64,000 bases of DNA from a virus (Duplodnaviria; Heunggongvirae; Uroviricota; Caudoviricetes), in IMG/VR virus record IMGVR_UViG_3300021387_000463, positions 171,001 through 235,000 of that record; one strand, written 5' to 3'. A program made the position numbers and the translations under genes. This document shows positions 4,598 to 61,530 of the stretch, one piece after another (the first letter of the stretch is position 1; every line of letters starts with the position of its first letter). The notes under the pieces are model-generated. The model was not told where the DNA came from, made no database searches, and saw only the letters and a list, made by a program, of their open reading frames with translations.

Positions 4598-4922
4598 TAA
4601 GAAGAAAGACGCATTTCGTATAGCCTCACGTTTCATCAAAGAACTAGGACTATACGATATTTGGCTTAAATATTTGTACGACCCTAATACTAGTAAGAGT
4701 TGGCTCGATAAACCAGATAGTAAGTTTTTCGATTCAGATATTTTAGGTTGTACAAGATTTACTGAATATGTGTATAGATATAAACCAAAGTTCGATACTA
4801 AGGGGCATTTCATGTATGAACTTTTGGAATTTTATCTTGCAGCGTTAAAAGACCCAAAAGGAACTTGTTATCCACTAATAATTGATAACGAAAAGAAAAA
4901 GATAGTATTACGCACACATTAA
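4581..4922 (+). CDS. Hypothetical protein, F.K..xLY family
   Basis: RFIKELGLYDIW; paralog of 3679-4047. Confidence 0.7.
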   Translation: MSNFTDKKKDAFRIASRFIKELGLYDIWLKYLYDPNTSKSWLDKPDSKFFDSDILGCTRFTEYVYRYKPKFDTKGHFMYELLEFYLAALKDPKGTCYPLIIDNEKKKIVLRTH

Positions 4923-6260: not shown

Positions 6261-6862
6261 AATACTACAGATACCTTAGAGAAATAGAAGAAGTTCAAGA
6301 TAATACTAATATAAATTATTTTATCACATATACATTTGGCGGTAGAACGAATAGATTAAATAATCTTGGTACATATGGAAACAATGATATGTGGCATAAT
6401 ACTGGTGACGTAATCTATTCTCTTGAACCACAATACAAGAAATATAATTTCCATGTTAGCTGGATTTATCAATCTGCTGATGATGGAAAGACCATCATGG
6501 ATGACACCAATAATCTCCATGATTTAGAGCCAATTAGGGACTATTTCTTTGAGGTTAACACTGACCTCGATGCTGCAACTGAGGAACTAATCAAGCTAAA
6601 GAGAGAGAAAGGTGCTAATATTACGATAAAGCCACTTATGATGGATATGAGAAGTTATAAGATTATCTATCATATTGAGTGTAATGTTATGACTAAAAAC
6701 GGTAAGTGCTTCTCTAGTACTTGGGATGAAGACACCGATGTATACAACTCAATTGTTAATTGTTTCAAGAAACTTAGAAAAGGTACTTCTAGTGGCTATC
6801 ACTATAAAATAAAAGAGGTTTTAGAAAAACAGAAAGATGAAAGAATACGGAAGCATACCTAG
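6257..6862 (+). CDS. Hypothetical protein
   Basis: ATG overlaps the upstream stop. Confidence 0.7.
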   Translation: MKYYRYLREIEEVQDNTNINYFITYTFGGRTNRLNNLGTYGNNDMWHNTGDVIYSLEPQYKKYNFHVSWIYQSADDGKTIMDDTNNLHDLEPIRDYFFEVNTDLDAATEELIKLKREKGANITIKPLMMDMRSYKIIYHIECNVMTKNGKCFSSTWDEDTDVYNSIVNCFKKLRKGTSSGYHYKIKEVLEKQKDERIRKHT

Positions 6863-22661: not shown

Positions 22662-23762
22662 ATGAAAGAACTTAGTATAGAGCAAAAAACCCAAAGATAT
22701 GACGAGGTTGTAAACAAACTCAAAAGATTTATGATGCAAGGTGTTGACCCTTTAATAACAAGGGCTGATGTTCAAGACTTCTTCCCAGAACTCAAAGAGT
22801 CAGAGGATGAGAAGATGCGAGCAATGGCAATAAAAGCAGTATATGCGCCTGAAGCACAAAGTTGTATTAAAAGTTGGGGAATAAATCCAGACGATGTCAT
22901 TGCTTGGCTTGAAAAGCAAGGTGATGCCAACAAAGAGTATTGGACAGGTTACAGGGAGGGTAAACAAGAAATTCTCGATAAATACGCTGAACTTGAAAAG
23001 CAAGATGAGCAGAAGCCTTATGGTCAAAGAGAAGAATGCTCTGATTGTCAATTCAACTATGCTGGAGAATGCAAAGGCTCTTGCTCTATGAAAAGAGGTG
23101 AGCAGAAGGCTGATAAGATTAAACCTAAGTTTCATGGAGGTGATTGGCTTGTAAGCGTTGAACATGGTAATGTAGTAAGGGTTCTTGAAGTCTTAAAAGA
23201 TAATTATAGGCTTGATTTCGATGGAAATACTATTGGAACTCTTTGCACAGAACTTATAGACAAAGATTATCGTTTGTGGAATATTACCAAAGATGCAAAA
23301 CCTGGTGATGTGCTTGCTGGTCATGAATCCTATGTGATATTTAAAGAAATTGATGGATTGAATATTAAATGTCATTGCACATATCATTATATGGGTTTTA
23401 AACCAAGTTTTTATATAAATACCTTACAAAATAAAGATGCTTTTCATCCAGCAACCAAAGAACAGCGCGATGCTCTTATGAAAGCAATGGCTAATGCAGG
23501 ATATACCTTTGACTTTGAAAAGAAAGAATTGAAGAAGATTGAGAAGAAGCCACAACGTATGATATCAGCAGAGGCAAAAGAAGCGATGTATTCAAAGCCT
23601 GCTGAGTGGAGTGAAGAGGATGAACTGCATATTAGAGAACTTGAAAGTCTTGTAAAACGAGTATGGGCAACAGCAGAGCATGAAAATGATAAAGACACTA
23701 TACATAAAATGAGTGGCTTGTCATTTTTTCTAAAGACACTTAAAGCACAGAAAGGAGAATAG
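22662..23762 (+). CDS. Mosaic hypothetical protein
   Basis: Modular motifs ESEDE..R, WLEKQ, PKF..GDW, PATKEQRD.L...GY.FD, WSEEDE. Confidence 0.8.
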   Translation: MKELSIEQKTQRYDEVVNKLKRFMMQGVDPLITRADVQDFFPELKESEDEKMRAMAIKAVYAPEAQSCIKSWGINPDDVIAWLEKQGDANKEYWTGYREGKQEILDKYAELEKQDEQKPYGQREECSDCQFNYAGECKGSCSMKRGEQKADKIKPKFHGGDWLVSVEHGNVVRVLEVLKDNYRLDFDGNTIGTLCTELIDKDYRLWNITKDAKPGDVLAGHESYVIFKEIDGLNIKCHCTYHYMGFKPSFYINTLQNKDAFHPATKEQRDALMKAMANAGYTFDFEKKELKKIEKKPQRMISAEAKEAMYSKPAEWSEEDELHIRELESLVKRVWATAEHENDKDTIHKMSGLSFFLKTLKAQKGE

Positions 23763-60484: not shown

Positions 60485-60559
60485 GATTAATTTGTTAAAA
60501 AGTGTAAAAAGTTATGAGAAAATTTTGGATTTAAGAAAAAAGGATATATCTTTGCATTG

Positions 60560-60810
60560 TCAATGAGACGGAAATAAAGTAAGGTTACAAGGTAATCACA
60601 CACCTCCTTTCTGTGATAAAATGGTTTTGCAAATCTAAAGATAACCTTAAAAATTCTCAGCGGAGAATACCTTACTTTCCAAAGATATATTTGAACGATA
60701 CCAGAGGAGAACTATCCGCAAGGGTAGATGTGGACAAATGGGCATTAAGTTCGTGCTTAATGTGTCACTTCGGTGACTTCGGTGATTCAAATTCACCTCG
60801 TTCAACTAAT
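60560..60810 (+). ncRNA. Structured ncRNA with two multi-stem domains and an anti-SD-like loop
   Basis: Own promoter (60547); closing stems 60576-85/60669-78 and 60691-98/60798-805; GCAA and cUUCGg tetraloops. Confidence 0.8.
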
Positions 60811-60890
60811 TAGTAAGTAATTGTAGTAATGGCTTGTACTGCGCTCTGTTCTATAGAGCAACTTGAGCGGTCCGATTCCGTGCTTACTAA
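60811..60890 (+). tRNA. Degenerate tRNA-like element (TCT anticodon, Arg-like)
   Basis: Acceptor TAGTAAG/CTTACTA, anticodon stem GCTCT/AGAGC, T loop TCCGATT, abnormal D arm. Confidence 0.6.
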
Positions 60891-60929
60891 CAATCTAATC
60901 TTTTTAATTGTTACTGATTCTTGTCGCAA

Positions 60930-60970
60930 GGGGTGAAAGCAATTCGGCTTTCACCCCAAAAGTTATTTTT
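60930..60970 (+). terminator. Rho-independent terminator
   Basis: ggggtgaaagc-aattcg-gctttcacccc. Confidence 0.75.
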
Positions 60971-61443: not shown

Positions 61444-61530
61444 GAAAAATTAACGTGAATTGTTTGGTCAGTTCACGTTTTTTTCGTACCTTTGCATCGT
61501 AAACAAATAACAATTAAAAAGAAAAAGATT

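Follow-up and report, generated by a model that had tools for sequence, protein, structure and literature searches.

What is the RNA with which a jumbo phage displays a copy of the 16S rRNA 3' tail in a hairpin loop, and does this copy act on translation? The window that we analysed, a stretch of DNA of 64,000 nucleotides, comprises bases 171001-235000 of an IMG/VR phage record of 412,753 bp that is rated complete. Bacteroidota-type promoters (TTTG, 19 nt, TAnnTTTG) lie upstream of the RNA locus and of neighbouring genes, and the helicase-like protein encoded just downstream of the RNA was closest to Bacteroides thetaiotaomicron phage proteins, with 40% identity. These promoters and these closest phage proteins make a Bacteroidales host likely. 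Bacteroidia ribosomes sequester the anti-Shine-Dalgarno (ASD) sequence, which is what the initial annotation of the locus had taken as its background (PMC7797042, PMC9976891), and are reported to ignore Shine-Dalgarno (SD) sequences.

That annotation had placed a promoter at 60547 and, behind it, an ORF-less transcript folded into two closed domains. A −7 box does begin at 60547, with a −33 element 19 nt upstream, and this TATCTTTGCA box with its upstream TTTG was kept at all homologous loci and also stands before neighbouring early genes. The pairings that had been listed were all present and were reproduced by the minimum-energy fold of 60556-60965 (−115.5 kcal/mol, z = −4.1, 0/100 shuffles as good). 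The 66-aa GTG frame at 60613-60813 overlies an RNA module that shows covariation in its stems and 1-3-nt indels between its copies, so that the description as ORF-less holds. The notion of a free-standing two-domain RNA did not survive: the stems are there, but they belong to a longer unit, in which the predicted transcript runs from promoter to terminator. The unit is made of an early-type promoter, a leader (D1), a module that had been called domain 2 (M), a tRNA(UCU)-like element (D3), an anti-leader trailer and a terminator hairpin, in this order:

60524..60554, plus strand: Bacteroidota-type promoter, with the −33 TTTG at 60524-27, the −7 TAnnTTTG at 60547-54 and a 19-nt spacer.
60570..60681, plus strand: leader D1, with a closing stem, an inner stem, a hypervariable tip and a conserved 3' hairpin.
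60595..60617, plus strand: hairpin ATCACA / TGTGAT (stem arms 60595-600 / 60612-617) within D1, with the 11-nt loop CACCTCCTTTC.
60690..60806, plus strand: module M, a tRNA-like RNA, anticodon-less and derived from tRNA-Tyr.
60810..60891, plus strand: D3, an atypical tRNA(UCU)-like element with acceptor TAGTAAG/CTTACTA, anticodon loop GTTCTAT and T-loop TCCGATT.
60889..60914, plus strand: A/U-rich trailer, the reverse complement of the common early-gene leader (AACAATTAAAAAGATTAG...).
60930..60957, plus strand: GC-rich terminator-like hairpin, with an 11-bp stem, the loop AATTCG and then an A/T-rich tail.

The terminator-like hairpin showed compensatory stem changes between homologs; the terminator scan did not call it because its T run is not adjacent to the stem. 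An Rfam search, which had been proposed as a check, was run on the window and the loci: nothing exceeded the gathering threshold for the RNA unit, and at E<=10 D1, M and D3 had no match either, apart from a sub-threshold one of the loop hairpin to the S4-Bacteroidia leader. Likewise, blastn of the locus against 50,697 phage records returned no match. We consider the anatomy of the RNA unit secure, and the locus is very probably an ORF-less transcription unit that stands by itself and is of tRNA type, in a 412-kb jumbo phage of Bacteroidales that is uncultivated. The RNA family, which combines a leader carrying a swappable tip with an anticodon-less tRNA-Tyr-like module, is undescribed.

Module M had been seen as a generic closed domain, a view that alignment and a covariance model led us to replace. 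Its acceptor-like closing stem of 8 bp (60691-98 / 60798-805) encloses four hairpins and abuts a 5-bp T-stem, and the order of the arms aligns with the cloverleaf of tRNA-Tyr. The D-arm, CCA/TGG, has an inserted hairpin, and its D-loop holds an invariant insertion of ~30 nt. In place of the anticodon arm there is an 8-bp arm, whose loop of 5-6 nt (TTCGTG or GGTAA) lacks a conserved triplet. A variable arm and a T-arm follow, the latter being GGTGA-TTCAAAT-TCACC in the window, with TGCAAAT as the T-loop in most copies. We aligned 44 distinct copies of M, with a mean identity of 78%, and observed compensatory changes in 22 of the 35 predicted pairs. In this alignment 98.4% of the cells were paired, as compared with 33-41% when the partners were slid; the closing stem was a criterion by which copies were selected, which in itself accounts for its 100% pairing, whereas no such selection applied to the other six helices. 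The covariance model of M (R1) matched the phage's own tRNA-Tyr(GTA) end to end (40.2 bits, E = 3e-10), with the acceptor, D-stem, variable arm and T-arm all aligned, and scored 23.1 bits on a second tRNA-Tyr. This alignment, together with the 5-6-nt loop in place of the anticodon arm, indicated that M is an anticodon-less derivative of a class II tRNA, namely tRNA-Tyr. It resembles class II tRNA-Tyr and the tRNA arrays of phages in aligning over its whole length and in standing elsewhere in tandem with tRNAs. It differs in its D-loop insertion and in the absence of a 7-nt anticodon loop on a 5-bp stem, and it was called neither by ARAGORN nor by the Rfam tRNA model. M is likely a substrate of tRNA end-processing enzymes, in the manner of tRNA-like processing signals of the mascRNA type.

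In an IMG/VR scan, the core of M recurred in at least 27 rumen phage contigs, often as tandem arrays directly after tRNAs, and in rumen jumbo phages the arrays stand beside tRNAs, a tmRNA and a GOLLD-like RNA. Two more copies were found in the genome under study at 130.3-130.6 kb, between a tRNA and a GOLLD-like RNA and near a tmRNA. M was not found in the 401 Bacteroidales genomes searched; it is without an Rfam family, and we found no paper describing it. The setting of rumen phages with tRNA islands is shared with GOLLD and ROOL (PMC5737381; 10.1101/2024.12.08.627333), and M copies lie beside a GOLLD-like RNA. However, the D1-M-D3 RNA is far smaller and has no GOLLD/ROOL match, and the link is thus one of neighbourhood, not of homology.

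Several further observations concern M and its surroundings. The RNA island that holds the two additional copies, outside the window (G000:C1:129164-131566; L002 161-2562), has a tRNA-Ile, a tmRNA (64.3 bits), a tRNA(CAT) and the two copies of M, and then a structured spacer of ~380 nt, the GOLLD-like RNA (73.6 bits, E = 4e-18, where the gathering score is 150) and a tRNA match of intron-containing size. At G000:C1:110213-110785 (L186 1213-1584), two or three tRNA-Tyr(GTA)-type class II genes stand in a row, of which one (L186 1399-1494) was uncalled by ARAGORN; these genes are likely the ancestors of M. At many loci (for example L004 5640-5680 and L002 1455-1490), M is preceded by a conserved hairpin, GGTGG-ACAAnnnnAAAAA-CCACC, with TTTTGG after it. 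This hairpin was present whenever M had neither a tRNA nor another M nor a short D1 linker immediately before it, and it may be a processing or folding aid. At six loci (L006, L011, L030, L160, L171 and L178), the T-stem and acceptor 3' strand at the 3' end of M read CACCTCCTTCAAC, which includes 9 nt identical to the 16S tail, here base-paired; M of the window has CACCTCGTTCAAC. Three of these six loci belong to phages with the anti-SD-like D1 loop.

The element behind M, D3, was not called by ARAGORN or by the Rfam tRNA model at E<=10 either. In its homologs (n = 9 distinct) the anticodon stems covary around a UCU triplet that is retained, and the T-loop is mostly the canonical TTCGATT; D3 was absent from the homologs L016, L022 and L021. 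The tRNA(UCU)-like elements of L026 (about 6290-6500) and L013 (1146-1235) have a large insertion or a replaced anticodon region, possibly an intron or a sign of further decay.

In the trailer, TTTTAATTGTT makes its only plus-strand occurrence; it occurs five times on the minus strand, four of these being the reverse of promoter-adjacent gene leaders. The predicted duplexes of the trailer with three neighbouring leaders reached −16.2 to −17.6 kcal/mol, the leader near 61519 offering a perfect complement of 15 nt, and the trailer segment TTTTAATTGTTA was kept in all full-length homologs. The trailer could act as an antisense RNA, or it could be an orientation-independent DNA site.

We then come to the leader that carries the 16S-like loop. 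The closing stem of D1 (60576-85 / 60669-78) is a perfect 10 bp, with two compensatory changes in L005; its inner stem (60589-93 / 60644-48) pairs AAGGT with ACCTT, and its 3' hairpin, ATTCTC-AGCG-GAGAAT at 60653-60668, is conserved. Homologs were gathered by a metagenome scan on the scaffold sequence alone, that is, blind to the tip, and from viral loci, which gave 22 distinct D1 sequences. The scaffold was conserved in all of them and the tips were unrelated between types. Five D1s had the 16S-like loop on a hairpin (the window, L178, L171, L160 and L174) and one more, that of L016/L167, kept the motif without that hairpin, which makes six of the 22. Unrelated inserts occupied the place in the 16 others, 13 sharing one tip and 3 carrying different ones. 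The scaffold bears at least six unrelated types of tip; further loci showed tips of other kinds or lacked D1 altogether. By sequence comparison, D1 is a scaffold that is conserved while its tip is exchanged from one phage lineage to another, and the 16S-tail copy is an accessory of a sub-lineage, confined to one phage lineage.

The initial annotation had held that a loop lost while the stems are conserved would speak against a mimic, and for the family as a whole this is largely what we observed: the closing stem and the 3' hairpin were conserved and the tip was replaced in 16/22. The covariation that it had proposed to test was found for the stem within the loop-bearing lineage, but the loop itself was not a family trait. 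The other tip types did not extend the idea of mimicry. Their best matches to rRNA were of 9-12 nt, mostly inside the range of shuffled sequences, and we rejected them as rRNA mimics. The idea that every tip is an antisense seed was also rejected, as the commonest of the other tips, with a 17-nt loop, had no near-perfect complement in its own genomes besides itself.

Within its lineage, the copy is precise. The 16S tail of Bacteroidales had been given correctly in the initial annotation, and the identity proved slightly longer than claimed: 60600-60613 equals the 3' end of Bacteroidota 16S rDNA at 14/14 bases, including the first base after the tail. Apart from this one base, it comprises the 13 nt that follow helix 45, which make up nearly all of the single-stranded tail. 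The 16-mer of the 16S tail, GGAACACCTCCTTTCT, occurred almost exclusively in Bacteroidota genomes, including Segatella copri, Alistipes, Porphyromonas and Bacteroidaceae, and in five Bacteroidota genomes it ended 2 nt past the end of the Rfam SSU match. The 13-mer of the loop occurs once in the 412,753-bp genome, where ~0.002 occurrences are expected on that strand from base composition. Among shuffled tips, 0-1/100 reached a 14-nt match anywhere in two rRNA operons, and a match to the tail was far rarer. We judge the identity too long and too well placed for chance: it takes in nearly all of the free tail, and the two come to an end together.

The 11-nt loop on the ATCACA/TGTGAT stem was found as described. 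The mean unpaired probability of its motif was 0.86 in the window and 0.74-0.87 over the five hairpin-type homologs, and the loop was exposed both in the full-length fold and in D1 alone. In relatives the stem reads AACACA/TGTGTT, a compensatory change, or has TGTGGT, with a G-U pair. The loop was identical in four of the five hairpin-type D1s, the close relative L171 reading CCTTC (CCUUC). In the diverged L016/L167, the 13-mer ACCTCCTTTCTGT was the longest conserved block of the tip, the rest being poorly alignable; the minimum-energy fold of L016 pairs part of the motif within D1 (unpaired probability 0.34). Because the motif persists in L016, we lean towards the view that the 16S-tail copy is under selection.

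We also looked at what else could account for the motif. As an SD of a minus-strand gene it was rejected, the only frame being a 38-aa GTG ORF that lies immediately next to the motif and extends across the promoter. Among the first 115 IMG/VR matches listed for the 14-mer, 66 were the reversed SD of an opposite-strand gene and 27 lay inside long ORFs, while the other 22 mostly resembled these two cases too; none of the 115 had 16S-like flanks or was a further ncRNA mimic. The exact 17-mer around the loop had in IMG/VR three unrelated matches only, in coding sequence or reversed SDs. Hairpin 60595-60617 scored 13.7 bits (E = 2.9) against RF03139, the S4-Bacteroidia leader, as compared with a gathering threshold of 34.7; we rejected membership, the likeness being limited to a hairpin with a pyrimidine loop. 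Incidentally, we noticed that GTTACAAGGTAA at 60581-60592, upstream of the tail copy, resembles the 16S segment GTAACAAGGTAG at 11/12 positions (L104 about 4790-4803). This segment lies just before helix 45, and D1 looks like a 16S 3' end minus helix 45. By a rough estimate the chance of such a block is a few per cent, and it is not kept in L016.

A possibility is that none of this bears on SD or ASD. The tip of D1 would then be a tolerated insert of fast turnover and the 16S-like stretch a captured host 16S end or a product of chance; any constraint on it would be structural or serve an unrelated partner, and the conserved job of the RNA would lie in its tRNA-like modules and trailer. Such an explanation is in keeping with the unrelated tips found on one scaffold and with the absence of the motif in 16/22 D1s, with loop-less sister phages that have the same early-gene island, and with the mutation of the core to CCUUC in a close relative. 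Capture would also fit an identity that stops at the end of the 16S tail and the weak upstream block, UUACAAGGUAA vs GUAACAAGGUAG. It is less easily reconciled with the rarity of rRNA-operon matches among shuffled tips, and of tail matches above all, or with the compensatory change in the stem of the loop hairpin. Moreover, a neutral 13-mer should decay like its flanks in L016, yet it stands there as the one conserved island. We hold this explanation to be about as probable as the pairing seed that we favour below.

If the loop acts by pairing, SD-like leaders are the obvious place to look. Between 52111 and 62530, the window has at least 12 near-identical early promoters (TATCTTTGCA), each with an A-rich leader of 25-35 nt. 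The early leader has the form AATTAAAA(G/A)GAGAT..ATTATG, with GGAG in some only, and the same island occurs in sister phages. GGAG at SD-like spacing was found before ~5% of the large phage ORFs, and the sites cluster next to the RNA; for plus-strand AAGGAG-N4-9-ATG sites, 12/43 lay within 20 kb upstream of the RNA or next to it. Many early leaders were without any GGAG.

Our preferred reading, to which we give a probability of about 0.3, is that the loop is a lineage-specific anti-SD seed that pairs with SD-like early leaders and is accessory to the core function of the family. We infer that the unit is transcribed, processed and active by pairing in trans. Enzymes of tRNA processing would recognise the tRNA-like modules as cleavage sites and so set free D1, a small RNA of ~125 nt, whose open C/U-rich loop would act on RNA as the 16S tail does. 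It would pair with the AAAGGAG(G) tracts that the phage's own early genes have in their short leaders and, with the anti-leader trailer of the same transcript, would damp or time early-gene translation. This seed would be an accessory of one lineage and not the core function of the RNA family.

Several observations are consistent with such a seed. The loop is exposed in both folds computed, its 14/14 match to the 16S tail is unique in the genome, and no plausible opposite-strand gene would account for the motif by an SD of its own. Members of the lineage keep the loop on a stem that covaries, the 13-mer outlasting the rest of the tip in L016/L167, and the sole loop variant, a C to U change, still pairs with GGAG via G-U. 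With nearby early-gene leaders the loop forms 7-9 bp at −9.3 to −13.6 kcal/mol, a range that does not clearly exceed that of random windows, whose cut-offs are −10.8 (5%) and −13.8 (1%). The AAGGAG sites that cluster beside the RNA offer potential partners, the transcript ends in a conserved segment antisense to early leaders, and the well-supported tRNA-like modules could direct processing. We favour leader pairing because of this conserved trailer, because the C-to-U variant pairs, and because anti-SD seeds in hairpin loops are established. Indeed, RNAIII and RsaE of S. aureus and RoxS of B. subtilis are small RNAs that pair with SD regions through C/U-rich loops, and the phage RNA also shows an unpaired pyrimidine-rich loop complementary to purine-rich ribosome-binding sites. 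It differs from them in that their seeds are short (UCCC/CCCC) and family-wide, whereas the phage motif is a 14-nt copy of 16S found in one sub-lineage. Besides, the host ribosomes of the phage are reported to ignore SDs, and there is no sequence or Rfam relationship.

Other results weigh against this same seed. The initial annotation had put forward the AAAGGAG(G) sites of the early genes as possible targets of the loop, an idea that was weakened by the comparison of genomes. The loop-bearing genomes had 43 and 41 AAGGAG-N4-9-ATG sites on the main strand and the genomes that lack the loop had 35 and 43, which are similar numbers, and a correlation of loop presence with SD usage was rejected. 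The two loop-less sister genomes have the same SD-like early-gene cluster; the loop is thus not needed for those genes. The phages behind the 16/22 D1s that miss the loop keep SD-like leaders in similar counts. The 7-bp duplexes of the loop with typical leaders were no better than those of ~5-10% of random 34-nt windows, and GGAG is missing from many of the early leaders. The best genomic complement of the loop, 12 nt at window position 23746 (−17.7 kcal/mol), was missing from the other loop-bearing genome, G004, and present in the loop-less G005. We rejected it as a conserved target because its occurrence does not follow the loop. Finally, the 16S identity exceeds what SD pairing needs, with ACA on the 5' side and CUG on the 3' side, which mimicry or capture fits better than an antisense seed does.

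Host rpsU, which had been named as an alternative target, fared no better. An rpsU with an SD is described for Flavobacteriia (PMC7797042, PMC9976891). In the three Bacteroidales genomes checked (L189, L190 and L191, i.e. Segatella copri and two Bacteroidaceae MAGs), rpsU had an A-rich leader and no SD upstream. The Flavobacteriia route is not transferable to these three genomes, and an rpsU target is inapplicable if the host is a member of the Bacteroidales.

The surplus of identity brings in another partner, ribosomal protein bS21. In this alternative, the mechanism put forward by the initial annotation, the loop would be a decoy of the 16S tail for its bS21/bS18/bS6 pocket that soaks up exchangeable bS21, so that bS21-poor ribosomes with a free ASD favour SD-led phage mRNAs. 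SD pairing would require less than an identity over nearly all of the single-stranded tail, and a decoy for this tail pocket explains it better than leader pairing does. There is a precedent in the ASD mimic of OLE RNA, which binds bS21 and whose mutation abolishes binding (PMC12054373). Flavobacterium ribosomes that lack bS21 gain SD recognition (PMC9976891). We found no bS21 gene in the phage genome, and the replacement of bS21 proposed for other phages (PMC9723584) is thus a route closed to this one. A subset of phage genes with GGAG at SD-like spacing could profit. Yet the loop is absent from 16/22 D1s, and loop-less sisters have similar SD counts. The copy sits in a closed hairpin loop instead of a free 3' end, and the CCUUC variant alters a core base. 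A decoy in trans would presumably have to compete with the tail tethered to the ribosome, and in OLE the mimic forms a duplex with a strand that resembles an SD, a pairing that the predicted folds of the phage RNA do not show. On balance we find a bS21 decoy unlikely.

The comparison with OLE RNA deserves to be made in full, as it was the only case we found of a published ncRNA that mimics the ASD and has a demonstrated partner. In P6 of this Bacillota RNA, a CCUCCU strand paired with an SD-like strand forms the ASD mimic that binds bS21 (PMC12054373). Both are structured non-coding RNAs with a stretch identical to the local 16S ASD. They differ in that the CCUCCU of OLE is base-paired, whereas the 14 nt of the phage RNA lie in an open hairpin loop. 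Moreover, OLE is encoded by Gram-positive anaerobes as a cellular RNA of ~600 nt, and here the stretch belongs to the leader of a phage RNA in a Bacteroidales setting, in which sequestration of the ASD is the normal state. Homology with OLE was not indicated by Rfam, at the gathering threshold or at E<=10. A duplex of the OLE type was absent from the minimum-energy and ensemble folds of the phage RNA, the one candidate being a hypothetical 7-bp contact with M.

That contact leads to action in cis, in which the loop would pair with a GGAG strand of its own transcript, either AGAGGAG in the D-loop of M or GGAGAA in the 3' hairpin of D1. The resulting SD-ASD-like duplex would alter folding or processing of the precursor, or create a protein site like that of OLE P6. 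CUCCUUU and the AGAGGAG of M can form 7 bp, including one G-U, at −9.5 kcal/mol. The D-loop tract concerned, AGAGGAGAA, was invariant in the 44 copies of M, and the fold of L016 does pair part of the motif inside D1. However, the tract is invariant with or without the D1 loop, which points to another role for it. In the full-length fold the loop stays unpaired, the energies do not stand out from the random background, and no covariation was seen between the loop and the tract of M. We regard cis action as improbable.

An equally doubtful idea, and the boldest, is that the RNA replaces the 16S tail in trans, being tethered to modules of tRNA shape, and would in this way reprogram SD-blind Bacteroidia ribosomes. 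It could strip or occupy the bS21/bS18/bS6 pocket and so free the ASD, or it could itself supply SD recognition with the tRNA-like part docked on the ribosome.

Collectively, the locus addresses the question of how phage mRNAs are translated by SD-blind Bacteroidia ribosomes, and why SD-like leaders persist there. A phage RNA that displays the exact 16S tail gives this question a concrete, mutable handle, be it as an anti-SD regulator or as an OLE-like decoy of bS21 and the tail pocket.
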